From Promethearchaeota archaeon (lineage in GTDB: Archaea; Asgardarchaeota; Lokiarchaeia; Sigyniarchaeales; SOKP01), in assembly GCA_048940645.1 (NCBI GenBank), contig JBHLOI010000087.1:1-11321 (forward strand): 11,321 nucleotides of DNA, written 5' to 3'. The notes below the pieces were generated by a model. It had not been told where the DNA came from and ran no database searches. It was given only the letters and a program-made list of their open reading frames with translations. This document shows positions 1 through 10,461 of this stretch, in pieces. The stretch's first letter is position 1; each line of letters opens with the position of its first letter. Both the position numbers and the translations under genes were made by a program.

Positions 1-444
1 CCGAATGGTTTTATAAAATTTATTTATTGAAATATAATTTTTCCCGTCAAGATAGATTACATCCGAAAGTAAAATTGTATAGCCCTTCCAATTTATATTA
101 TATTCTACATTTTTCATTAGATACAGTTTTATTAAATCATTCCGCACTTTTGCTTTTTTTTCTTTTACAGCGTCTAAAATCTTCACATATTCAGGAGAAA
201 TTGTAATTCTATGATTCAAAGCAAGAAGATCTACGTCTTTTGGTTTATTTGTTTGAAAAGCTCTTCCGCGAGGGATTTTAATGCCTAGTTCATCTTTTAC
301 GAATCCTTTTGGATAATGAAATAAAAATCCAAATTCAAGATTAGAATTTGTTAATTCTCTTTCTAATTCTCCAATTTCAAGAATATATTTTCTAATCAAT
401 AGTTTTAATTTAGGTTCTCGCCTTTTAGTTGGTTTTTTGGCCAT
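1..444 (-). CDS. DUF2299-like hypothetical protein, 3' end beyond window edge
   Basis: Not in ORF track. Hand translation from ATG (CAT at 442-444) is open for 148 codons to the edge: MAKKPTKRREPKLKLLIRKYILE...LEFGFLFHYP...HRITISPEYVKIL...ILLSDVIYLDGKNYISINKFYKTIR. The 'I.ISPE' and 'D.IY.D..IS...FYK.IR' pattern recalls archaeal DUF2299; family call is from memory. Confidence 0.7.
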   Translation of the reverse strand, partial: MAKKPTKRREPKLKLLIRKYILEIGELERELTNSNLEFGFLFHYPKGFVKDELGIKIPRGRAFQTNKPKDVDLLALNHRITISPEYVKILDAVKEKKAKVRNDLIKLYLMKNVEYNINWKGYTILLSDVIYLDGKNYISINKFYKTIR

Positions 445-717
445 GTGTTTTGATTAATTTTATAGTTTCTTTTATAGAATTCTTTATATTTTAATATATA
501 TTGCATTGGGTAGATAATATTTAAATTTCCCTTATCAAGAGCCGAATTTAAAAATCATTAAGATATTGCTCGATGGAATATTTTTCATAGTGATTTTATT
601 AACTCTCCTAAAAAGACTTTTAAGAAATCCTTTTTCGAGTAGTTGTTTGAAAACAATATTTAAAATTCTATAAACTATTATACAAAATATTTTAAGTGAT
701 TTTTATCGTGTTAAAAT

Positions 718-891
718 ATGGAGAAGAAGAAATTCTTTACTTTAGAAGATCATAAACTAGCTTCAATGGGTCCAGATTATGTTGTCATAATCCCCAGGAA
801 ATTAATAAAGTATAAAATAATTGATCCGCAAAAACATTATAATATTCATTTTGAAGAAATCACCGGAGAGAATGAGAAAAAAAAGGGTTAA
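718..891 (+). CDS. small AbrB/MazE/SpoVT-like swapped-hairpin DNA-binding protein (57 aa)
   Basis: Below the ORF track cut-off. MEKKKFFTLEDHKLASMGPDYVVIIPRKLIKYKIIDPQKHYNIHFEEITGENEKKKG*. The 'K...MG..YVV.IP+.L......DP...Y.I.FE' pattern fits swapped-hairpin regulators. Confidence 0.6.
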   Translation: MEKKKFFTLEDHKLASMGPDYVVIIPRKLIKYKIIDPQKHYNIHFEEITGENEKKKG

Positions 892-979
892 CTTTCTTCT
901 CGATATGAACAATGTTTTATTATATCAAATTTTATAATGTGATTTTTCAGTACTTTAATGATTTTGGGAGTATAATCTA

Positions 980-1177
980 TTAATTAGGCAGATCATCTGG
1001 GTGAATAATTTTATAAAATTCCCTTTTTTTCCAATTTAAGATATCTTCGTTTGTGTACACAAATATTTTGTTGAAATTTTGATTGAAATATCTTAAATAC
1101 CCTCTTTGAATTATTAAGACGCCCATGGCAGAATTATTAGCAAAATGAAGGAATTGATCATTATGTAATTTCGTAGG
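980..1177 (-). pseudogene. PAS-domain fragment (sensor protein relic)
   Basis: Minus frame reads PTKLHNDQFLHFANNSAMGVLIIQRGYLRYFNQNFNKIFVYTNEDILNWKKREFYKIIHPDDLPN*. This is the N-terminal half of a PAS domain (G.LIIQ.G..Y.N..F..IF[G]Y...HPDD), bounded by stops at 1178-1180 and 980-982. Confidence 0.75.
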
Positions 1178-1508
1178 TTATTCCTTAACTTCTTCAACTT
1201 TATCTTTGCTAATTAATTTTCGCAAACATAGTAATATTAGATTTTCTTATTAATCTTTTTTAAACTAGAAATTCTTCTAAATTAGAGTTTTTTGCGGAAA
1301 TTTTTAAAAAAATATTGAAAAATAAAAATTTAAATAAAATTAGGCTAATTATATAAATATGGTATAGGGAAGTCTATAGGAGATTCTATAAAATTGCTAT
1401 TTTATGTTAATTTCAGAATACTCTAAAAATAGAAACTGGTAAAAATTAGCAGAGTTTCGATAAAACAAGACCAGTAGCAACATGTCATATGAATGATTGG
1501 ATTAATAA

Positions 1509-2186
1509 GTGGTTCTTATGAGTGAAAAATTTGAAAATGATATTCTAGAAATAATAAATTGGACAGAAAAAATGGCCAGAAATTATGAGTTAGCTATTAA
1601 AAAAGGTGAATTTGAAAAAGAGTGTCCTTATCCTAAAATAATTAAAATGTATGAAGATATAGGATATAAACTTAATGAGCATGGATGGAATGAGCAGGCT
1701 GTGATTTTCAATAGCCAAATTAAATTTTACAATAAAAAATTAGAGAAAGATAAGAAATTACGCGAAATTGAAGCTCAAAAAGTACAAAAAAAGAAAAAAT
1801 TTGAAGAATTACATAAAATTAAGGAAATTGATACTGTTAGAGCTGTAATCGATTCTCTCGATAAAGAAGAGGAGATTTTAAATTTTGAAGAGAAAAAGAA
1901 AGAAAAAATTGAAGAATCTGAAGAAATTTTTAATATGATCAGTATTGCTGAAAGATTAGCAAGAGAATACGAACAAGGAATAAAAAGGGGTAGCATTCTT
2001 CGTCTTGAATGTCCCTATGAAAAAATAATAGAAACTTATAAAAAAGCAAAAAAAAGATTTGAAAGTATTGGTTGGAAAGAAGAGTCGAGTAAATTGATCG
2101 AATCAATCTGGTATTATAATGATAAACTCGAAAAAGATAAAATATTACGCGAAATTGAAGAGAAAAAGCTTATTAAGGAATTTTAG
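1509..2186 (+). CDS. alpha-helical protein with two tandem ~85-aa repeats
   Basis: Internal repeat: AE+.AR.YE..IK+G...ECPY.KII..Y......GW.E......I.[FY]YN.KLEKDK.LREIE twice. ATG at 1518 is an alternative, probably better, start than GTG 1509. Confidence 0.85.
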   Translation: MVLMSEKFENDILEIINWTEKMARNYELAIKKGEFEKECPYPKIIKMYEDIGYKLNEHGWNEQAVIFNSQIKFYNKKLEKDKKLREIEAQKVQKKKKFEELHKIKEIDTVRAVIDSLDKEEEILNFEEKKKEKIEESEEIFNMISIAERLAREYEQGIKRGSILRLECPYEKIIETYKKAKKRFESIGWKEESSKLIESIWYYNDKLEKDKILREIEEKKLIKEF

Positions 2187-2293
2187 AATTTTTTACAATT
2201 TCTCTATCTGCTATAGAACTTCCAAGATTAAATATTAAACTTTTTTTAATCAAATAAAAATATATATATAAATAATGAAGTGGTAAACGAAGA

Positions 2294-2524
2294 ATGGATA
2301 AAAGGGATTTAGAAAGATTTTTTAATCGTTTAGAGGAATTATTAGAAACTAATGGGTGTAATGGTCGCGATTTAACGAATGCGGAGATTATTTTAGAGGA
2401 AATGCATATACCAAAAGAGGAGCAGGAGGAGTTTTTGGAGGATTGCAGAAGTTCGGGAGGGTTTTGTGATTGTGAGATTTTCCTAAACTCTGAAGAGTTT
2501 TTGAGAGAAAAGTATAATCATTAA
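2294..2524 (+). CDS. DUF2695-like small acidic Cys-motif protein
   Basis: 76-aa ORF with GGFCDCEIFLN matching the GG.CDCE[VI]..N signature of DUF2695, plus an upstream GC. AT-rich TATA-like element at about 2260-2272. Confidence 0.75.
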   Translation: MDKRDLERFFNRLEELLETNGCNGRDLTNAEIILEEMHIPKEEQEEFLEDCRSSGGFCDCEIFLNSEEFLREKYNH

Positions 2525-2676
2525 AGTTATCTTTTAAATAAAGAAGAAAATTGAATATCGATTTTGGACTTATTTAATCCTTTTCAAAGTTTTAATATTA
2601 TTTCTGTCCTTGAAGTAATATTTAATAATTATCCAATCAAATTAATTTATATAAAAAAAATTGTAGGTGATATCTA

Positions 2677-3183
2677 ATGAAAACAGATGATGACCAAGAT
2701 ATTAATATTCAAAGAAAGAAAAAAATGAAAAAAATTGGCTTCCTTACGCTTATAATTGGAATTGCTTTGATAATTGCTGGAATATTCTTTTTTATAGCTT
2801 CACTTAATTCAATGGGTGAAGTTGGAAATAATAATTTCATGTTGTTTGGTGGTGCTACAGCTGGATGTTGGTTTGTTGGTTCTATTTGTATTATGGCTAC
2901 ATTTATGTTATTACGTGTGGCGTATCATAGAGAAATTCTTAGGTATGGATATGAAGAAACGGGAATGGCTCTCGGCACAGCATCAGAAAGAGCGATAGAT
3001 GGATATGGAAGGATTATTGGTAAGGGATCTGAAGCAGTGGCAAGTGGTATTAAAAGTGCTGGTGGGATAAAATTAGATGTGGATAGTAATAAAGAACAAA
3101 TAATAAAAATTAGATGTAAAGCTTGTGGAACCCTAAATGATGAAGATGCTAAATATTGTGATGAATGCGGGCAACAAATTTAA
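2677..3183 (+). CDS. membrane protein with two TM helices and C-terminal zinc ribbon
   Basis: Hydrophobic IGFLTLIIGIALIIAGIFFFIA and FMLFGGATAGCWFVGSICIMATFMLL; C-terminal CKACGTLNDEDAKYCDECG; GGTGA just upstream of the ATG. Confidence 0.85.
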   Translation: MKTDDDQDINIQRKKKMKKIGFLTLIIGIALIIAGIFFFIASLNSMGEVGNNNFMLFGGATAGCWFVGSICIMATFMLLRVAYHREILRYGYEETGMALGTASERAIDGYGRIIGKGSEAVASGIKSAGGIKLDVDSNKEQIIKIRCKACGTLNDEDAKYCDECGQQI

Positions 3184-3251
3184 TTAAAATTGCATAAAGA
3201 TAAATATTTCAATGGCAGGAAAAAATTCGCTAAACGATTTATAAACAACGC

Positions 3252-3421
3252 TTGTTATTGGATATTGGGATTCCAGCCTATCTGATTCATGCATCGGGTC
3301 ATGCAACTTCGCATGATTTAATTAATTTCATCAATACAGTTAACCCTCAATCCATACCGAACATACATATTTTTTTGAGAAGTTATTTCAGAAATCAGAA
3401 ATTAAAGTTTTAACACCTTAA
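3252..3421 (+). pseudogene. C-terminal relic of RNase J-like beta-CASP metallo-beta-lactamase
   Basis: One frame reads LLLDIGIPAYLIHASGHATSHDLINFINTVNPQ. After a frameshift at about 3350 it continues IHTEHTYFFEKLFQKSEIKVLTP* (stop 3419-3421). HASGHA and (P)IHTEH correspond to beta-CASP motifs B and C. No N-terminal part is present. Confidence 0.8.
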
Positions 3422-3464
3422 TTAAATAAATCTATAGTATTTTAGACTAAATCTTAATCTCAAT

Positions 3465-3516
3465 TTACGTAAAATTTACGTAACGGGGACATATAAATTA
3501 CGTAAGCCTTACGTAA
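3465..3516. repeat. four perfect TTACGTAA palindromes on an 11-bp lattice (putative operator array)
   Basis: TTACGTAA at 3465, 3476, 3498 and 3509 (spacings 11, 22, 11), directly upstream of a TATA box and the RHH gene. Confidence 0.85.
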
Positions 3517-3530
3517 TATCTAGCATAACA

Positions 3531-3540
3531 TTTATATATA
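3531..3540 (+). promoter_or_regulatory. putative archaeal TATA box of the RHH gene
   Basis: TTTATATATA starting 28 bp upstream of ATG 3559, consistent with a leaderless or short-leader archaeal transcript. Confidence 0.55.
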
Positions 3541-3558
3541 AACAATACGATTCATTAC

Positions 3559-3846
3559 ATGATGACGAAACCAACGGAGAATTATGCTAGGATAAATTTA
3601 ATTTTGTCAAAGGAAGATAAAGATAAATGGGACAAGGTTGCAGGTGATCTTCTCGGGATCAGCCTATCTCAATTAATTAGAGACTCCGTTAATGACTACA
3701 TAAGCAGAATTGAAAATTATGAACGAATAGTAAAAAAGGATAGCTTTGAAAGAGTGTTAGATGTACTAGAACCGGAAATTGACAAATTAATTCGTGAAAA
3801 AATCGATGATTACTTGAACATAAAACTAAAACAGAAAGAACGATAA
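3559..3846 (+). CDS. ribbon-helix-helix (CopG/Arc-like) DNA-binding protein
   Basis: ARINLILSKEDKDKWDKVAGDLLGISLSQLIRDSVNDYI has an alternating beta ribbon, a helix, and a G-x-S-x-S-x-LIR second helix; charged helical C-terminus. Confidence 0.8.
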   Translation: MMTKPTENYARINLILSKEDKDKWDKVAGDLLGISLSQLIRDSVNDYISRIENYERIVKKDSFERVLDVLEPEIDKLIREKIDDYLNIKLKQKER

Positions 3847-3971
3847 GTTTATACGGGGTTTTGGTTCAGTCATATGATATGAATGTGATTAATGCCTTGC
3901 TGGTATTATTATGGTAGTTTAATTAAGGAAATTAAAGAATAGTGTAAACAAGGCCTCAGAAGTGGTAAATT

Positions 3972-4319
3972 ATGTCGATTATAGTGTTAGGAAATAAAAA
4001 TGTAAGCGAAATCATTCAAAGAGCTATTAAAAAAAAGGCAGATGCCTATAAATTTCTGATTAGAAATGGCTTGTTAAAAGAGGCTAATTATACTTATCAT
4101 GAATGGAAGGCTCTAATCGAAATCGCCGAATTATTAGGGCTGAAGTTTAAATCAATAGCTAATGTTAAGAGTGTGAAAATTGCGGGAGATAATTTATCAT
4201 TGACTAAGGACCAATTAGAAAAATTAGTAATATTGATCTACTTTCATTTTAACAGATACAAACTGCTTCATATAAGGGAATTCGAAAAAATGATAATTAA
4301 TATAATCGAGAATGAGTAG
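3972..4319 (+). CDS. hypothetical protein (115 aa)
   Basis: Intact ORF with plausible composition; no motif recognised. Confidence 0.65.
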   Translation: MSIIVLGNKNVSEIIQRAIKKKADAYKFLIRNGLLKEANYTYHEWKALIEIAELLGLKFKSIANVKSVKIAGDNLSLTKDQLEKLVILIYFHFNRYKLLHIREFEKMIINIIENE

Positions 4320-4433
4320 ATTAAAATGTTGACCTAGAAAATTACTCAGGGGGAGGAGGACCTTATTCAAAGCATATTAAATTCAGTTTATGATTCTGTT
4401 TGATAATAGATTAAGAGAAAAATAAAAAAATAT

Positions 4434-5120
4434 ATGGAAAAAATAGAGAAAGGAAGTAGAATAAATAAAGTGAATGAAAATTGCTTTAACTGTGCCCTTT
4501 TTAAATGGGATGAGTGGCGTCAGGGGAATTTTCCGTGTGAATATTATTCTGAGAGAATGTATTTAAATGGATATAAAGGTAATTGTGATTATTATATTTT
4601 TGATTATGAAAAAGCATCTCAAAAAATATCTGATCCACCACGAGAAAATTTTGTTAAGTTTTTTCCTAGCTATAAAAGGGCCTGTATCAACTGTAAGTTT
4701 TGTAACTTTGAAAATATAAAGTACAATATAAACCGCTGCCGATATTATCATGGAAAGCCAAAAGATAAAAACTTAACAAGTTATTATTGCGAAAATTTTA
4801 TGTGGAGGAACCTTCCCATTTCAGACAATTTTCTAAAAAGAATGGAGAGCGTTCGCGAAAAATTTATTAGGAGGTATCCTGAAACAGATATGAGAGAATT
4901 AGAGCTCAAAACTCGGACCAGAGAACTTGGAAATGGGATGAGAATCCTCGAGACCCTAGAAAGAGATTATAGAGCTTACCAAGATAAAATATTAGAATTA
5001 AGTAGAATGTATCAGCCAAAATATCCACAAAATAATGTTTTTTCAGCAATCATAGTAATTATTCTTATAATTTTAAGTATAATGGTAACAGCCTTGTTTT
5101 GTACAGTTATGAGATTTTGA
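4434..5120 (+). CDS. Cys-rich protein with two putative metal-binding repeats, helical stalk and C-terminal TM anchor
   Basis: C17-x2-C-x14-C-x15-C and C84-x2-C-x14-C-x16-C (CEYY/CRYY). Hydrophobic VFSAIIVIILIILSIMVTALFCTV ends 3 residues from the C-terminus. Confidence 0.8.
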   Translation: MEKIEKGSRINKVNENCFNCALFKWDEWRQGNFPCEYYSERMYLNGYKGNCDYYIFDYEKASQKISDPPRENFVKFFPSYKRACINCKFCNFENIKYNINRCRYYHGKPKDKNLTSYYCENFMWRNLPISDNFLKRMESVREKFIRRYPETDMRELELKTRTRELGNGMRILETLERDYRAYQDKILELSRMYQPKYPQNNVFSAIIVIILIILSIMVTALFCTVMRF

Positions 5121-5162
5121 TTTTAAGAGGCGCTAGGCTGGTAATTACGAGTAATTAATTAT

Positions 5163-5187
5163 AATGACAAAAATGTGAGATTTATAT
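5163..5187 (+). promoter_or_regulatory. conserved 25-bp upstream element, copy 1 (TGACA-N4-TGTGA + TATA-like)
   Basis: AATGACAAAAATGTGAGATTTATAT, identical at 7255-7279 and 8502-8526. Confidence 0.8.
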
Positions 5188-5288
5188 ACTCATAGTTTTT
5201 TATTAATATCGAGAAGAGGAAAAAATCGATAATTAGATAAATTGAATAAATTTTTAATGAACTTCATTGATAAAGAGAATATTGAAAT

Positions 5289-5816
5289 ATGTATGATGCA
5301 GAATTTAAGATAGTTCTTTTTGGTGACCCCGAAGTAGCAAAAGCTAATTTAGCTAAGAAATTCTTGACAGATTTATTCGTCTCTGGTACAAAAATGACAA
5401 TAGGAGTCGATTTTGAAGTAAAAAGTATATTTGTAGAAGATAAGAGAGTTAAATTAAAGATATGGGATTTCAGTGGTGAAGAAAGACATAGATTTTTACT
5501 TCCTACTTATGTAAGTGGTGCAAAAGGTGGCTTATTTATGTATGATATTACAAACTACGCGTCTATTGCTCATATCGATGATTGGTTATCAATTATTAGA
5601 AAGGAAATCAGACCAGGATATGAATTTCCTATAATGGCTGTAGGGATTAAATCCGGTGTAATGAAAGATAGACAGGTTTCTGCTGAAGAAGGGATGGAAA
5701 TTGCAAGATCAAGAGGACTAGATGGCTTTATTGAATGTTCTGTTGAAACTGGGGAGAATGTTGAGGAAGTTTTTGAAGAATTGATACGATTAATGATCAA
5801 CCGTTCTTTTATTTAA
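5289..5816 (+). CDS. Rab-like small GTPase with degenerate G1/G4 motifs
   Basis: FKIVLFGDPEVAKAN (G1), TIGVDF (G2), KIWDFSGEERHR (G3), VGIKS (G4), ECSVETGENVEEVF (G5). Confidence 0.92.
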   Translation: MYDAEFKIVLFGDPEVAKANLAKKFLTDLFVSGTKMTIGVDFEVKSIFVEDKRVKLKIWDFSGEERHRFLLPTYVSGAKGGLFMYDITNYASIAHIDDWLSIIRKEIRPGYEFPIMAVGIKSGVMKDRQVSAEEGMEIARSRGLDGFIECSVETGENVEEVFEELIRLMINRSFI

Positions 5817-5913
5817 TAAAAAGAATGAGAGAAAAATTACTTCTTTTTTTCTTATTATTTGGTCTGGGTAGTTAAGCATAGCAAAGTTTAGTGCGTTATA
5901 CCGTGACATACAA

Positions 5914-5938
5914 ATTGACAATAATGTGAAATATAAAT
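5914..5938 (+). promoter_or_regulatory. degenerate copy of the 25-bp upstream element
   Basis: ATTGACAATAATGTGAAATATAAAT, 20/25 match, with TGACA and TGTGA intact, upstream of the 5972 ORF. Confidence 0.6.
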
Positions 5939-5971
5939 ATTCAACTAAATTAAGATTACTCAAAAGAAATC

Positions 5972-7222
5972 ATGAAATGGAAAAAAAAAAAGAAATTTGG
6001 AAATTTTTCATATATATATAAGCTTTTGATGCTTAATCATCAAATAAATCCGAAAACTAGCGCCACTGAGTCCAAGATAAATGAATTTATCACACTTAAA
6101 TTAGAGAACGGAAAAACATTTATCTATGTAAATGGTAAAAGGTTTCTGCAGTGTATTCGTTTAATTCTTAATATTCCGAAGAAGGATACGCAATTATATG
6201 ATGAAATCGAGTCGATAGACGAAGCTGCAGATTTGTATAACAAACGCTTATCCCAAAATAGAATAGTAACAGGTCCTATGGCACGTCCTGTACTAGATCA
6301 GACTCATGATATTACGCCTGAGGAGGAATTTTGGGGGCATTGTTCAAATATTCAAGCATGGGTGGAAAATGAGTATGATACCAGAATTTTAAAGAGTAAT
6401 ATTTCTTTTCCATTATTGAGAGAGTTAACCCAAGCTGGAGATCCCTTGGCAAGAAAGGTTTTTAAGGATGAAATTGCCTTAAGACTCGAAAGCGGGTATC
6501 CTTCAGTTGTTCAGTATCTCATTAATCAAGGTTATATCAAATACTTAACACCCTTTGAATTTAAAACTGTAATAGATACTACCAAACTTATCGAAAATAT
6601 CTCAAGGGAACCCAGAACATTAAAGAAAGCTCTTAATATCCCCGCCATATCAGGCAGGAGTTTTTTAGAAGATATACATTTAAAAGATCCTTTAAAAATA
6701 AGACAATCACTCATTAGGGACACAGTACAGACAAGTGATATATTATCTGAAAGGAAAAAGGTGCTTGAAAAGAGAAAGAGACTTAAAAAAGCCTATTATA
6801 ATGATATATTGAAACTTATTGAAGCTAAGGAATACGAGAAAGCGATCGTAGAATGTGAAGACGTTGTTAATCGCTTAATTAAAAATAAAAAGTATAAGTT
6901 AGCTGGCATATCCCTAGTAATTCTTACTCTTATGTTATTAAAACAAAATAGGGTTAATGAAATTAATAAAAAATTAGAAGATATGGAAAAAAATCTTTAT
7001 AATTTCTCTGAAACTTATGCTTCTATGTTGATTCATTACATTTTAGATATAAATAAAAGAAAGAAGAAAGAACTAAAAAAGTCAGTATCATTGATTGAAT
7101 TTTTACCATTATTTGAAGAAGAGATCAACCTTTTGTACGATTATTTAGGTAAGGGGTATGAGGGAGTTAAAAAAAAAATAATCGTGCTACGGTTATCGTG
7201 TTATGGTTACATTTTCAAATAA
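5972..7222 (+). CDS. 'FWGHCSNIQAW' domain fused to a TPR-like helical C-terminus
   Basis: aa ~35-217 are paralogous to the central part of the 8764 ORF. The C-terminus is helical-repeat-like (YNDILKLIEAKEYEKAIVECEDVVNRL...LPLFEEE). True start may be ATG 6029, since the first 19 codons look like AT-rich intergenic sequence. Confidence 0.85.
   Translation: MKWKKKKKFGNFSYIYKLLMLNHQINPKTSATESKINEFITLKLENGKTFIYVNGKRFLQCIRLILNIPKKDTQLYDEIESIDEAADLYNKRLSQNRIVTGPMARPVLDQTHDITPEEEFWGHCSNIQAWVENEYDTRILKSNISFPLLRELTQAGDPLARKVFKDEIALRLESGYPSVVQYLINQGYIKYLTPFEFKTVIDTTKLIENISREPRTLKKALNIPAISGRSFLEDIHLKDPLKIRQSLIRDTVQTSDILSERKKVLEKRKRLKKAYYNDILKLIEAKEYEKAIVECEDVVNRLIKNKKYKLAGISLVILTLMLLKQNRVNEINKKLEDMEKNLYNFSETYASMLIHYILDINKRKKKELKKSVSLIEFLPLFEEEINLLYDYLGKGYEGVKKKIIVLRLSCYGYIFK
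6074..6623 (+). repeat. direct repeat copy A (~550 bp) of 9424-9973
   Basis: Colinear without indels at offset 3350. Perfect tracts at 6254-6367 and 6587-6619. Confidence 0.9.
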
Positions 7223-7254
7223 TTTTTCTATTAAAAAAGTTGTAAACTAATTAA

Positions 7255-7279
7255 AATGACAAAAATGTGAGATTTATAT
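7255..7279 (+). promoter_or_regulatory. conserved 25-bp upstream element, copy 2
   Basis: Identical to copy 1. Identity extends to 35 bp with copy 3 (7253-7287 = 8500-8534), and similarity to copy 1 continues to about 7323 (ATATC[TG]AGAAGAGGAAAAA[TA]TCGATAA). Confidence 0.8.
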
Positions 7280-7350
7280 GCTTAAATTTTTTTTTGATAT
7301 CTAGAAGAGGAAAAATTCGATAAATAAATTATATTTCTAAGGAAAGGATA

Positions 7351-8340
7351 ATGGTAGATTATACATTTCTCAAAGTTCTTATTTTCTGTGACAGTGTGGT
7401 AGGAAAACAAACTTTTATTAAGAAGTATTGTTCCAGCAGTTTTGGTCATAATTATAAATCAACCATAGGAGTGGATTTATTTACAACAAAGATTAAATTA
7501 AGGCAGGGAGATACCGCCAGTTTAACCTTTTGGGACATTGCAGAACAATCTTATTTTAACAGATTAATGACTCGTTATTATGAAGATGCGAATGCTGGAA
7601 TAATAATATACGATTTGACGGACGGAAATAGCTTAAATAAAATACCCGAGTGGATTCAAAAAATTAGAAAATATTCTGGTGATATTCCCCTATTATTGGT
7701 AGGAAACAAGTCAGATTTAAAAGAACTTCGAGAAGGGTCAAAAGAAAAATTAGAAAAGCTTAAAAAAAGATATGATTTGTCCTCATCTATAGAGATTTCA
7801 TTAACAACAGGTGAAAATGTGGAACAAATGTTTATGAAATTAACAGAGCTGATCTTAAACGAAGAAATTAATAATGAAAATATTAGACTAATTTTTCCTA
7901 ACGAAGAAAGAAGATTTGGGTTTTTTGATCAGAATATTGGAATTAAGCTCCAGAGTCATTCTTGGCATGATCCCTATATTTTTCTTACATTTATTAGAAA
8001 AAAACCGGATAAGTCATGGAAAAAACCCCCAAGTGGCGAGGAAAGGGTTCTCAAATTTTCATTAGAAGAGATGGTAATGATTTTGGATGTATTACGCGGG
8101 GAATCAGATTCTTGGTCTACCGTTCATAAGTTTAAAGGAGAGCGAACCATAATTAAGTTTCAGTGGGATAAGAAGGACGCTAGGAAATTATGGGTTTATA
8201 TTAATAAAGAATATAATAAATCCCCCGATATTGGCAATTACCACATCCCGTACAAATATATTAGCGTTTTTCGAATGCTTTTAGACCATATTTTGCAGCA
8301 AAAAATAGCATATGGGAACAAGCCGAAGATAATGAATTGA
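7351..8340 (+). CDS. Rab-like small GTPase fused to a putative Whirly/PC4-like C-terminal domain
   Basis: KVLIFCDSVVGKQT (G1), STIGVDL, FWDIAEQ (G3), VGNKSDL (G4), EISLTTGENVEQMF, followed by ~140 extra aa with a repeated beta-strand/helix pattern. The GTPase call is firm; the Whirly call is tentative. Confidence 0.85.
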   Translation: MVDYTFLKVLIFCDSVVGKQTFIKKYCSSSFGHNYKSTIGVDLFTTKIKLRQGDTASLTFWDIAEQSYFNRLMTRYYEDANAGIIIYDLTDGNSLNKIPEWIQKIRKYSGDIPLLLVGNKSDLKELREGSKEKLEKLKKRYDLSSSIEISLTTGENVEQMFMKLTELILNEEINNENIRLIFPNEERRFGFFDQNIGIKLQSHSWHDPYIFLTFIRKKPDKSWKKPPSGEERVLKFSLEEMVMILDVLRGESDSWSTVHKFKGERTIIKFQWDKKDARKLWVYINKEYNKSPDIGNYHIPYKYISVFRMLLDHILQQKIAYGNKPKIMN

Positions 8341-8501
8341 AAGAAAATGAAGCTTTCTTTAAAAAAACATTTTAGAATTTAATTAGACATTATTTTAGGA
8401 CTTAAAATATTGAAAAACCTTTTGAGATATTAGCTGATACTTTTTTGAAAAGACTCGGAATGAACTAGGTATGAACTTGAAAATAAATTAAAATTAATCA
8501 A

Positions 8502-8526
8502 AATGACAAAAATGTGAGATTTATAT
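8502..8526 (+). promoter_or_regulatory. conserved 25-bp upstream element, copy 3
   Basis: Identical to copies 1 and 2. Confidence 0.8.
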
Positions 8527-8655
8527 GCTTAAATGTTTTTGTTAATAATTGGGAGCGCAAAAATATCAATTGAAAAGATGTTAATAGATGGTTTATTTAA
8601 GACAGAAACGTATTAAAATTGGAACAGTAATAGTTTTAATAACCTTCTTCTAATT

Positions 8656-8706
8656 AATGGCGAAAATATAGGTCATATTTTTCATAAAATCGCAGAATTA
8701 ATTTAG
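8656..8706 (+). pseudogene. possible relic of a small-GTPase C-terminal helix
   Basis: NGENIGHIFHKIAELI* aligns with TGENVEQMFMKLTELI (7351 ORF) and TGENVEEVFEELIRLM (5289 ORF). The match is short. Confidence 0.45.
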
Positions 8707-8763
8707 AAAACAAAATAAAATCTCAATGGTTCTTAATAAAGATAACGAGCTATTGAATTTAAG

Positions 8764-10461
8764 ATGAATTCGGAAATGAAAGAAGCAAAGTTAAGAATTG
8801 GAGTGTTGGATTCAAGTCGAAGTGGTCGTTCATTATGTTATATAGACCATAATGTTATGAAGAAATTAGGTCTAATCACAGGTAATATTATTGAAATGAG
8901 AGGGAAGAAAAAGACCGCAGGTATTGCGGTTTCCAGCATCAGTGATAAAGGAAAGGGGATAATAAGATTAGACCAGGTCCAAATGTTAAATGCTGGGGCA
9001 GATTTTGGTCATTATATTACTATTAAGCCGGCACGAGTATATCCCGCTCAGGAAATTGTTTTAACTCGTACAAAAGCTAATCTTGATATTATGAGAAACG
9101 TATTTGCTATTAAAGCAAAATTGATTGGTAAACCTCTCGTTGTTGGTGATTTCTTGGGAGCTGTCATTGTTGAAAATACAAATCCATCTGACAAAATAGT
9201 GAAAGTTACAATTGACACATTAATTAAATTAAGTAAAAAAGTCGCGCCGAAAAAGAATTTTGTTAATCCAAATTGGATAAAGCTTATAGCTGCGAAAGAG
9301 AATGTCTTTAATCCGAATTGGATAAAATTTATGGCTGCGAAAAAGAAACACGTTCATCCAGATTGGATAAAAGCCAAGATAAATGAATATAAAAAATATA
9401 AATCTCCTCCTAGGCTGGAAAAAAAAATTAATCAATATATAACCCTTAAACTGGAACATGGAAGAACTTATATTTATGTAAATGGTATAAGATTTTTGCA
9501 ATGTATCAGATTAGTGCTTGATATTCAGAAGAAGGATGTTCGACTATATGATGAAATTGAGTCGATAGATGAAGCCGCAGATTTGTATAACAAACACTTA
9601 TATCAAAATAGAATAGTAACAGGTCCTATGGCACGTCCTGTACTAGATCAGACTCATGATATTACGCCTGAGGAGGAATTTTGGGGGCATTGTTCAAATA
9701 TTCAAGCATGGGTGGAACATGGCTATGATACCAGGATTTTGAAAAGTAATGTCTCATTTCCATTATTAAGGCAATTAACCCAAGCTGGAGATCCTTTAGC
9801 AGGAAAGATTTTTAGGGAAGAAATTGCTTTAAGGCTCGAAAGTGGTTATCCATCGGTAGTTCAGTATCTCCTTAATCAAGGATATGTAAAGTATCTAACT
9901 CCTTTTGAATTTAAAACTATATTAGAGACTACTCCGCTTATCGAAAATATCTCAAGGGAACCCAGAACACTAATTAACTTTTTATCATCCTGCGCTTTAA
10001 AATTTCCCAATTTGTTTAAGGATATTTTACTGAAGATTTTAATGCTGCCTGAGGGAAGAAATAATATAGTCTCGGGCCTTTCGTTAAAATCAAAAAGACC
10101 ATATTTAAGATATAGCAACCGATTTTTAATAACTCTTTATCAGGTATTAGAAGATCTTTTAGGAGGAGTTGAATTCCAATTGAAAAAATATATAATAGAT
10201 TGTATTTCTATCACCGGAAAACTTATTGAAAAAGGGCTTCATTCACCTCCATTGCCAGATATTTATCAAAAATTTCTGATGAATGCACCTTTTAATGATC
10301 TATTACCTGAGGTATTTATGCCTTTAGAAGATAAAATAAAAAATGATAATCAAATTCTTCACAAGTTTTACAATTCACAACCGAAATGTTCATACTGTGG
10401 AAAAATAATTCCAAGGGGATTGGATACCTGCCATTGGTGCGGACATAATGTGTGGACATAA
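8764..10461 (+). CDS. fusion protein: Cdc48/VCP N-domain + NPNWIK repeats + 'FWGHCSNIQAW' domain + helical region + zinc ribbon (no AAA ATPase)
   Basis: LRIGVLDSSRSGRSLCYIDHNVMKKLGLITGNIIEMRGKKKTAGIA...KGIIRLDQVQMLNAGADFGHYITIKPA matches the Cdc48 N double-psi barrel. AQEIVL...LIGKPLVVGD...VENTNP..IVKVT.DT.I is a shortened second N subdomain. C-terminal CSYCG...CHWCG. No Walker A/B motifs. Confidence 0.88.
   Translation: MNSEMKEAKLRIGVLDSSRSGRSLCYIDHNVMKKLGLITGNIIEMRGKKKTAGIAVSSISDKGKGIIRLDQVQMLNAGADFGHYITIKPARVYPAQEIVLTRTKANLDIMRNVFAIKAKLIGKPLVVGDFLGAVIVENTNPSDKIVKVTIDTLIKLSKKVAPKKNFVNPNWIKLIAAKENVFNPNWIKFMAAKKKHVHPDWIKAKINEYKKYKSPPRLEKKINQYITLKLEHGRTYIYVNGIRFLQCIRLVLDIQKKDVRLYDEIESIDEAADLYNKHLYQNRIVTGPMARPVLDQTHDITPEEEFWGHCSNIQAWVEHGYDTRILKSNVSFPLLRQLTQAGDPLAGKIFREEIALRLESGYPSVVQYLLNQGYVKYLTPFEFKTILETTPLIENISREPRTLINFLSSCALKFPNLFKDILLKILMLPEGRNNIVSGLSLKSKRPYLRYSNRFLITLYQVLEDLLGGVEFQLKKYIIDCISITGKLIEKGLHSPPLPDIYQKFLMNAPFNDLLPEVFMPLEDKIKNDNQILHKFYNSQPKCSYCGKIIPRGLDTCHWCGHNVWT
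9244..9378 (+). repeat. three in-frame 45-bp tandem repeats
   Basis: APKKNFVNPNWIKLI / AAKENVFNPNWIKFM / AAKKKHVHPDWIKAK starting at 9244, 9289 and 9334. Confidence 0.9.
9424..9973 (+). repeat. direct repeat copy B (~550 bp) of 6074-6623
   Basis: See copy A. Perfect tracts at 9604-9717 and 9937-9969. Confidence 0.9.

Follow-up and report, generated by a model that had tools for sequence, protein, structure and literature searches.

Why should two genes for Rab-like GTPases with broken nucleotide motifs alternate, on one short piece of a Lokiarchaeial genome, with two genes for proteins that share a domain of no described family, and why should one promoter element recur in front of them? The stretch analysed here (the window) is the entire 11.3-kb contig C41 of a Promethearchaeota genome of 3.83 Mb (126 contigs, about 29% G+C), and a 26-kb contig of a second assembly, GCA_048941225.1, carries the same locus. 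Positions 5289-10461 are filled by four plus-strand open reading frames (ORFs): GT1 (5289-5816, 175 amino acids, aa), X1 (5972-7222, 416 aa), GT2 (7351-8340, 329 aa) and Cdc48N-X (8764-10461, 565 aa). The ORF calls and Pfam matches bear out the four co-oriented genes proposed by an initial annotation of this DNA, two of them coding for Ras/Rab-fold proteins and two for proteins with the shared domain, here called X. Judged from its sequence, the locus holds a genuine group of pseudo-GTPase and X-domain genes under common regulation, and the favoured reading, to which we assign a probability of about 0.55, is that their products form one co-regulated, lineage-specific machine.

A rare operator in front of the genes

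All features of the locus lie on the plus strand. Full copies of the promoter element occupy positions 5153-5224, 7245-7316 and 8492-8563, that is, 124, 94 and 260 nucleotides (nt) before the ATG of GT1, GT2 and Cdc48N-X, respectively, and a further copy (TGACAATAATGTGAAATATAAAT, 5916-5938) precedes the ATG of X1 by 56 nt. The earlier claim that the same non-coding element stands before each gene is thus right in that all four have a copy, except that the one before X1 is degenerate. A 29-nt string (ATGACAAAAATGTGAGATTTATAT...) is found in three identical copies starting at 5164, 7256 and 8503. Its 14-nt core, TGACA-N4-TGTGA, is an imperfect palindrome that abuts a TATA box; in the first copy the core lies at 5165-5178, with a TATA box 2 nt behind it and then the beginning of the conserved leader. 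Conservation extends about 70 nt into the leader, and an Rfam search at E ≤ 1 found no RNA element in the cluster, the long conserved leaders included.

The core occurs six times in the whole genome when both strands are counted, compared with two occurrences when it is reversed as a control. All but one of the six copies adjoin a TATA box, at a distance of 56-260 nt before the four genes of the window and one gene elsewhere, the GTPase gene C30:95-622. Because the 29 nt are 100% identical among the three window copies, whereas GT1 and GT2 are only 33% identical to each other, the copies are not passive remnants of duplication; they are maintained either by selection or by conversion.

The same element was found in front of the same classes of genes in other organisms. 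In species-representative genomes, exact Asgard matches lie upstream of an orthologue of Cdc48N-X, of two Ras-X fusions and of GTPases with variant P-loops (GDASAEKS or GDNSVGKQ), the exceptions being one match before a 1154-aa unknown protein and two matches at contig ends. A metagenome scan gave 23 hits, 13 of them with a readable downstream ORF, which is Ras-like in 12 of the 13. Four of these 12 are Ras-X proteins, and the P-loop, readable in 11, is non-canonical every time (GKQ, VDKT, TEKT, TEKK, VKKQ, STGTE or VDIS). The genes upstream of the promoter copies are frequently Roadblock or Ras genes, and a metagenomic contig from a close relative, L045, carries three exact copies. Co-regulation, as first proposed, is therefore upheld by an operator-plus-TATA element that is rare in the genome and precedes the same gene classes elsewhere. 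Since each gene has its own dimer-type operator abutting the TATA box, the four window genes and C30:95-622 probably form a small regulon under one predicted transcription factor, which would act at the TGACA-N4-TGTGA operators of five genes, each transcribed from its own promoter.

Two Rab-like proteins with broken nucleotide motifs

Both GT1 and GT2 belong to the Ras superfamily by sequence profile (Pfam Ras, TIGR00231). GT1, a Rab-like protein, matches Pfam Ras at 2.6e-38, GT2 matches it at 3.8e-35 over residues 8-169 and continues into a 155-aa tail, and the Pfam Roc model also matches both. The G1 motif of GT1 reads GDPEVAKA instead of the canonical GxxxxGK[ST], and its G4 reads IKSG instead of NKxD; G3 is retained (DFSG for DxxG) and G5 is SVE. 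The Rab-like G domain of GT2 (7351-7875) has G1 as CDSVVGKQ, has lost G3 (DIAE for DxxG) and keeps G4 (NKSD). The C-terminus of GT1 (...INRSFI) has no Cys near its end of the kind that a Rab prenylation motif calls for, and GT2 has its tail in place of that motif.

The label of degenerate Rab-like GTPases was therefore apt, with G1 and G4 broken in one protein and G1 and G3 in the other. A fully canonical paralogue of GT1, C78:6861-7388, is 69% identical to it with a dN/dS of 0.15, and the range for the GTPases against their paralogues is 0.15-0.24. A Ras-profile alignment of Ras-like ORFs from the same genome, GT1 and GT2 included, comprises 66 Ras domains. The canonical G1, G3 and G4 occur together in 35 of them, or in 52 when xKxD, a common form of G4, is allowed as well, and a readable non-canonical P-loop is present in only four proteins: GT1, GT2, C30:95-622 (GDKSVGKQ), which also bears the promoter motif, and C85:12748-13698, a membrane-anchored GT1-like protein (GEPEVARA). 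The fold of GT1 has thus been kept under selection while its nucleotide residues have gone, a pseudo-enzyme pattern, and we infer for both proteins that nucleotide function was lost from a fold still under selection. Because these motifs are broken, the GTPase switch once envisaged for the locus is doubtful. The Rab-like proteins linked to X would instead have given up the residues for normal GTP binding or hydrolysis and would serve as nucleotide-independent or permanently locked binding modules, not as cycling switches.

The motif-bearing GTPase on C30 has neighbours of its own: in C30:95-3004 (locus L148), a Roadblock-Roadblock-Ras fusion and a protein that joins Roadblock to a Zn ribbon are encoded upstream of this GKQ GTPase, an arrangement that recurs in L082 and L109.

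Domain X, a large family restricted to one lineage

X1 consists of a Lys-rich N-terminus, domain X (nt 6068-6616, residues 33-215) and a helical tail of 200 aa. The second copy of X lies at 9418-9966, residues 219-400 of the 565-aa protein. The two proteins are 64% identical over 274 aa and 85% identical over the 183-aa core, which confirms the earlier observation that the domain is present twice. Neither the X1 protein nor domain X has a family or model in Pfam or NCBIfam. A word-indexed search nevertheless returned 1,437 homologues of X (the best 120 at 66-100% identity), and an exhaustive HMMER search gave at least 2,525 clusters at 50% identity with E ≤ 1e-3, 1,268 of them at E ≤ 1e-30.

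When genomes were searched with a profile made from an alignment of the domain (A2), X was detected in 26 of the 29 genomes of the window's own GTDB family, with 1-22 matches each, and two sister families within the order have it as well. It was found in none of four genomes of a fourth, MK-D1-like family of that order and in none of 121 genomes of 24 other families of the phylum. The labels in the NCBI hit list are in conflict with this result, as they place X-bearing metagenome-assembled genomes in Thor-, Odin-, Hod- and Hermodarchaeota; the GTDB-based distribution, one family plus two sister families, is the one trusted here. The X family is large, undescribed and lineage-restricted, with architectures of the signalling type. 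A literature search, poor on subscription journals, returned no paper joining "Asgard" and "pseudoGTPase", and the Asgard papers on GTPases and eukaryotic signature proteins that it found do not include X. Alignment A2 can serve as the seed of a new domain family, whose members are now annotated as "hypothetical" or "zinc ribbon domain-containing".

An AlphaFold2 (AF2) model of X (pLDDT 88) has a four-stranded sheet, two helices, a hairpin and seven helices, and the last 70 or so residues of the domain repeat in tandem up to seven times. The known structures offer no convincing counterpart: the best Foldseek match in the PDB has an E value of 0.54, VIA-align against 48,161 chains reached a best Z of 4.0 with generic alpha-solenoid matches for the C-terminal half, a sequence-profile search of the PDB gave only a designed binder (E 1.4), and a structure search of the Atlas returned above TM 0.35 only clusters that contain X. 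As modelled, X has no detectable known fold, which is not proof of a new one.

Could X be an enzyme, or a metal-binding catalytic domain whose fused partners only target it? Sixteen columns are invariant across 66 sequences taken from distinct 50% clusters, and they include Cys32, Asp54, Glu90, His94-Cys95-Ser96-Asn97, Trp101 and Arg142 (numbered over window positions 6059-6619); such residues might form an active or metal site, and identity between paralogues is very high, at about 70%. However, no known catalytic fold was matched, the C-terminal half is a repeatable alpha-solenoid as is typical of scaffolds, and an adjacent His-Cys pair in a helix would be an unusual catalytic geometry, so that we regard a catalytic X as very improbable. 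In the favoured reading, X would be a cytoplasmic module made of a beta/alpha cap, which holds the invariant Cys, Asp, His-Cys-Ser-Asn and Arg, followed by the repeatable alpha-solenoid.

Fusions and topology of the X proteins

The partners of X give the domain its context. Among 86 representatives at 50% identity, X is fused to Ras in 15, to LRR in 12, to TPR in nine, to REC in five and to CBM96 in four, and Cdc48N is a partner as well. In the CBM96 forms the order is a signal or anchor, CBM96, a transmembrane (TM) segment, X, a helical region and a Zn ribbon. TM segments precede X in 54 of 257 X proteins and follow it in only four, which places X on the cytoplasmic side of these predicted receptor-like CBM96-TM proteins. 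In such members X would be the intracellular part of a single-pass receptor, and in others it would stand behind REC, LRR or TPR inputs.

Parts of the receptor-like architecture recur in the X proteins of the window. Between its Cdc48 N-domain and X, the 565-aa protein carries three 15-aa repeats of the KKNxFNPNWIK type (9248-9382, three tandem 45-nt units), which correspond to a conserved juxtamembrane element that precedes X in the receptor-like forms, where it follows the TM helix (P0023, P0026 and P0122). Behind X, at 9967-10461, come a helical region and a C4 zinc ribbon (CSYCGK...CHWCGH, residues 539-561, spaced CxxC-x10-CxxC); this module is the usual C-terminal companion of X and occurs in at least 40 family members. 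X1 (window 5972-6060) and several of its soluble relatives start with a poly-Lys stretch resembling the stop-transfer segment of the receptor forms, which suggests that they may descend from truncated receptors. Outside the window the tail of X1 was found only in P0001, an alternative gene call of this very protein, and in one close relative, P0002. It had been called TPR-like, a description that lacks Pfam support, as no TPR family matches it at E ≤ 0.1; other X proteins do carry TPRs.

The X proteins are also joined to Ras domains in a way that touches the window GTPases directly. A Ras domain is present in 29 of the 257 X proteins, in both orders, and about 1.7% of the genes of this genome carry one. 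P0007, with the order X-helical-ZnR-Ras, has a Ras domain 70.6% identical to GT1 with the P-loop GEPEVDKA, and the metagenomic P0122 (CBM96-TM-X-Ras-CDC48_N/CDC48_2) unites all three domain types of the cluster in one chain, its Ras domain being without a P-loop. None of 26 X-fused Ras domains keeps the canonical G1, G3 and G4 together, and since they show several distinct motif types, the degeneracy arose more than once. A functional tie between degenerate GTPases and X is thus supported by the Ras-X and X-Ras fusions, and by this reading the X proteins and pseudo-GTPases would bind one another and assemble into complexes.

The third X gene of the genome, on C85, lies 4.9 kb from the third P-loop-degenerate GTPase. 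The segment C85:12748-19853 holds a GT1-like pseudo-GTPase with a multi-TM anchor, a NiFe-hydrogenase operon and this X gene (X plus an extra half repeat), and none of its genes carries the promoter motif. A gelsolin-like N-terminus, seen by eye in the third X protein, has no Pfam support and was set aside.

The wealth of sensor-like partners invites a different interpretation, in which the locus belongs to an innate-immunity or conflict system, with X proteins as fast-diversifying LRR, TPR or CBM96 sensors, NLR-like or polymorphic, and pseudo-GTPases as their adaptors. The lineage-restricted distribution with 1-22 copies per genome, the common LRR and TPR fusions, and the domain shuffling, gene conversion and strain-level rearrangement described below would all suit it. 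Yet X is highly conserved between paralogues rather than diversifying, no effector domain, be it nuclease, NTPase, TIR, protease or another, was seen, and no mobile-element or phage genes were seen nearby. PADLOC, run on ten window proteins at E ≤ 0.01, gave no credible match; its sole row, a sub-threshold hit of a CARF model on GT2 (E 0.0026, 15.8 bits), was discounted. Nothing ties the locus to immunity, and we consider an immune role quite unlikely.

The variable ends: a Whirly-like tail and a Cdc48 N-domain

The tail of GT2 (7900-8340) was described from the start as Whirly-like, and structure prediction sustains the call. The eleven top Foldseek matches of its AF2 model (pLDDT 69) are all MRP1/2, Whirly (StWhy2, AtWHY1-3), PBF-2 or PURA structures (E 2.6e-4 to 6.3e-4, probability 1.00, TM about 0.5), and the Atlas model agrees, with TM 0.70/0.72 to a Whirly cluster. 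By Foldseek the tail thus shares its fold with the single-stranded nucleic acid binders Whirly, PUR-alpha and MRP1/2. It differs from them in being fused to a GTPase and in that residues 175-329 of GT2 have no Pfam match at E ≤ 0.1, Whirly and PurA included; binding of nucleic acid is only putative. Apart from the window's own protein, five homologues of the tail were found, all stand-alone proteins of 227-251 aa, and the fusion to a GTPase was found only in this organism. These homologues (P0259-P0263, of window 7873-8340) have an extra C-terminal domain of about 60 aa with a conserved ...IWIPKSTI... motif, which GT2 does not have.

The N-terminal part of the 565-aa protein (8764-9240) is a homologue of the Cdc48/VAT N-domain, a double-psi barrel followed by a weak beta-clam match. 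Residues 9-158 align with Pfam CDC48_N at 2.6e-13 (CDC48_2 is weak, at 0.09) and with positions 3-161 of TIGR01243 at 1.9e-16, the total TIGR01243 score being 59.5 against a cut-off of 802. Pfam shows no AAA family in the protein. It is therefore not a Cdc48: the D1 and D2 AAA domains of Cdc48/VAT are missing, and the N-domain is grafted onto X. The proposed link of the locus to Cdc48 stands insofar as an N-domain homologue is present, and falls insofar as there is no AAA ATPase and nothing ties the locus to the Cdc48 ATPase.

Might these proteins still be adaptors of Cdc48 or the proteasome in quality control, with the N-domain bringing clients tagged by ubiquitin-like proteins, or Cdc48 cofactors, to complexes of X and GTPase? 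The match spans both sub-domains, and the pairing of X with Cdc48N recurs in P0006 and P0122. CDC48_N was, however, found in only two of the 120 best X homologues, the fold is a general binder of peptides or adaptors, and neither the window nor its 26-kb version contains a gene for an AAA ATPase, a ubiquitin-like protein, E1/E2/E3 or the proteasome. Nothing thus links the locus to protein quality control, and we hold an adaptor role of this kind to be highly improbable. In the machine favoured here, the choice of targets would lie with the variable ends: peptide or ubiquitin-like ligands would be bound by the Cdc48 N-domain, and single-stranded nucleic acid by the Whirly fold.

Selection, gene conversion and rearrangement

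Purifying selection acts on all the genes. Their dN/dS is 0.13 between the two X copies and 0.33-0.38 for the Cdc48N-X orthologues, and with values of 0.13-0.38 across the genes, these are not decaying duplicates. A tract of 114 nt is identical between the two X copies (6254-6367 and 9604-9717) and spans the invariant EFWGHCSN motif. None of 20,000 permutations gave such a run (P < 5e-5), and the tract is likely to be the product of gene conversion between the copies. Another identical tract, of 33 nt, lies at the point where the tails of the X proteins diverge.

Further information comes from L045 (JGI 3300009034, Ga0115863_1005137, stretch 1-8500), which is about 92% identical in nucleotides and combines parts of contigs C41 and C85 in a mosaic. 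It starts with the end of X1 and a promoter, followed by a fusion of the GT2 G domain with a GT1 orthologue, which replaces the Whirly tail; next come another variant GTPase, a promoter copy without a gene of its own, a hydrogenase operon in inverted orientation and, last, Cdc48N-X. The orphan promoter copy, at 2096, faces the hydrogenase operon, and in the promoter of Cdc48N-X the change from GT1-type upstream sequence to the leader of Cdc48N-X falls precisely on the shared motif (about 6476-6531). With this junction inside the shared promoter, the repeated element doubles as a recombination patch. The conversion tract, the GT2-GT1 fusion and the junction corroborate the cassette duplication and shuffling around X that the initial annotation had suspected, and the order of the four genes is not conserved in the closest relatives.

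These findings raise the question of whether the locus is no more than a recombination playground, in which the genes are independent and the promoter is a copied remnant that serves as a homology patch. The altered order in L045, the junction within a promoter, the orphan copy and the conversion tract are what it would predict; the X1 tail is confined to P0001 and P0002, and no enrichment of GTPase genes around X genes was seen. It does not account for a promoter far better conserved than the coding regions downstream of it, for the same gene classes behind that promoter in separately assembled genomes and metagenomes, for purifying selection on every gene, or for the recurrence of the same three domain types inside single polypeptides. 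On balance we think this explanation unlikely.

How far the evidence carries

Several points weigh against reading the pseudo-GTPases and X proteins as one machine. The two other genes of the X and GT1-like types in the same genome, both on C85, lack the promoter motif, and gene order differs even at about 92% nucleotide identity, so the arrangement is strain-specific and mosaic. The enrichment of GTPase genes around X genes, which had been put forward as a check, was not found: in relatives, the surroundings of about 52 X genes, 505 kb in all, contain four separate Ras genes, where 7-10 are expected. A Ras domain is missing from the majority of X proteins, and X has many other fusion partners, so it may be a general scaffold without a special tie to GTPases; its invariant Cys and His could even mean that it is an enzyme and not a scaffold. 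GT2 keeps NKSD, and the P-loop is still canonical in some of the Ras domains fused to X, so these G domains may bind nucleotide without hydrolysing it.

A broader proposal joins the parts of the family into one scheme. X would be the transducer of a lineage-specific, eukaryote-style system under one operator-bound factor, in which CBM96 glycan-binding receptors and soluble REC, LRR or TPR sensors would signal through X to dedicated pseudo-GTPases, with nucleic-acid binding by the Whirly fold and client binding of the Cdc48-N type as outputs. This scheme is tentative, and we offer it as a possibility rather than an expectation.

Asgard small GTPases have mostly been discussed as forerunners of eukaryotic membrane traffic. 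The Lokiarchaeial family described here has a Rab-like branch whose GTPase cycle was apparently lost and which is wired to X by fusion and by promoter. If the favoured reading is true, pseudo-GTPase scaffolding and receptor-type architectures arose in archaea independently of eukaryotes, and five genes with one operator make a compact set for testing it.

Other features of the window

Three features upstream of the locus deserve mention. Positions 1139-1210, in a 1-kb gene-free stretch, have a sub-threshold Rfam match to a C/D-box snoRNA family (27 bits, E 0.86), which could be a C/D sRNA or chance. A 225-aa protein (1509-2186) is built of two internal repeats of about 130 aa, accompanied by direct DNA repeats at 1727-1780 and 2114-2167, and matches no family. 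At 3465-3846, as the initial annotation had noted, a small gene of the RHH type follows a phased TTACGTAA array, which is unrelated to the TGACA-N4-TGTGA operator.

Comparison with known systems

In MglA/MglB and the actinobacterial conservons (CvnA-D), a prokaryotic Ras-like protein cooperates with Roadblock partners and a sensor, and the genes form a small set under common regulation. The present locus differs from them in that neither a Roadblock nor a sensor kinase gene lies within 5163-10461; on the 26-kb contig the closest Robl_LC7 gene follows about 8.5 kb downstream. X has no counterpart in those systems.

The ROCO proteins (LRR-Roc-COR) resemble the X-Ras fusions in placing a Roc/Ras-like domain in one chain with an obligatory companion domain and LRR or other repeats. 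In the X family, however, both domain orders occur and the G domains are degenerate, and the window proteins have no Pfam COR match. No Roco/LRRK chain was among the Foldseek or VIA-align matches of X, although absence from a list of folds does not exclude a family.

In the multidomain small GTPases of Asgard archaea, the GTPase is joined in one chain with roadblock, longin or "?" domains (Tran et al. 2024, PMC10933270; Liu et al. 2020, 10.1101/2020.10.19.343400). Like them, the proteins described here have Rab-like G domains that are expanded in Lokiarchaeia, often fused, and arranged in architectures unseen in eukaryotes, and the motif-bearing GTPase genes of other genomes adjoin Roadblock genes. 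The differences are that the partner is X, which is named in neither of these two papers, and that the G domains linked to X are systematically degenerate.

A further parallel is offered by the eukaryotic pseudo-GTPases, for example, CENP-M (PMC4080450), in which a small-GTPase fold serves as an assembly module. Homology with these proteins extends only to the Ras superfamily, and the loss of nucleotide binding in GT1 and GT2 is judged from their motifs only. What the two groups have in common is a small-GTPase fold that purifying selection has kept while the motifs for nucleotide binding were lost.

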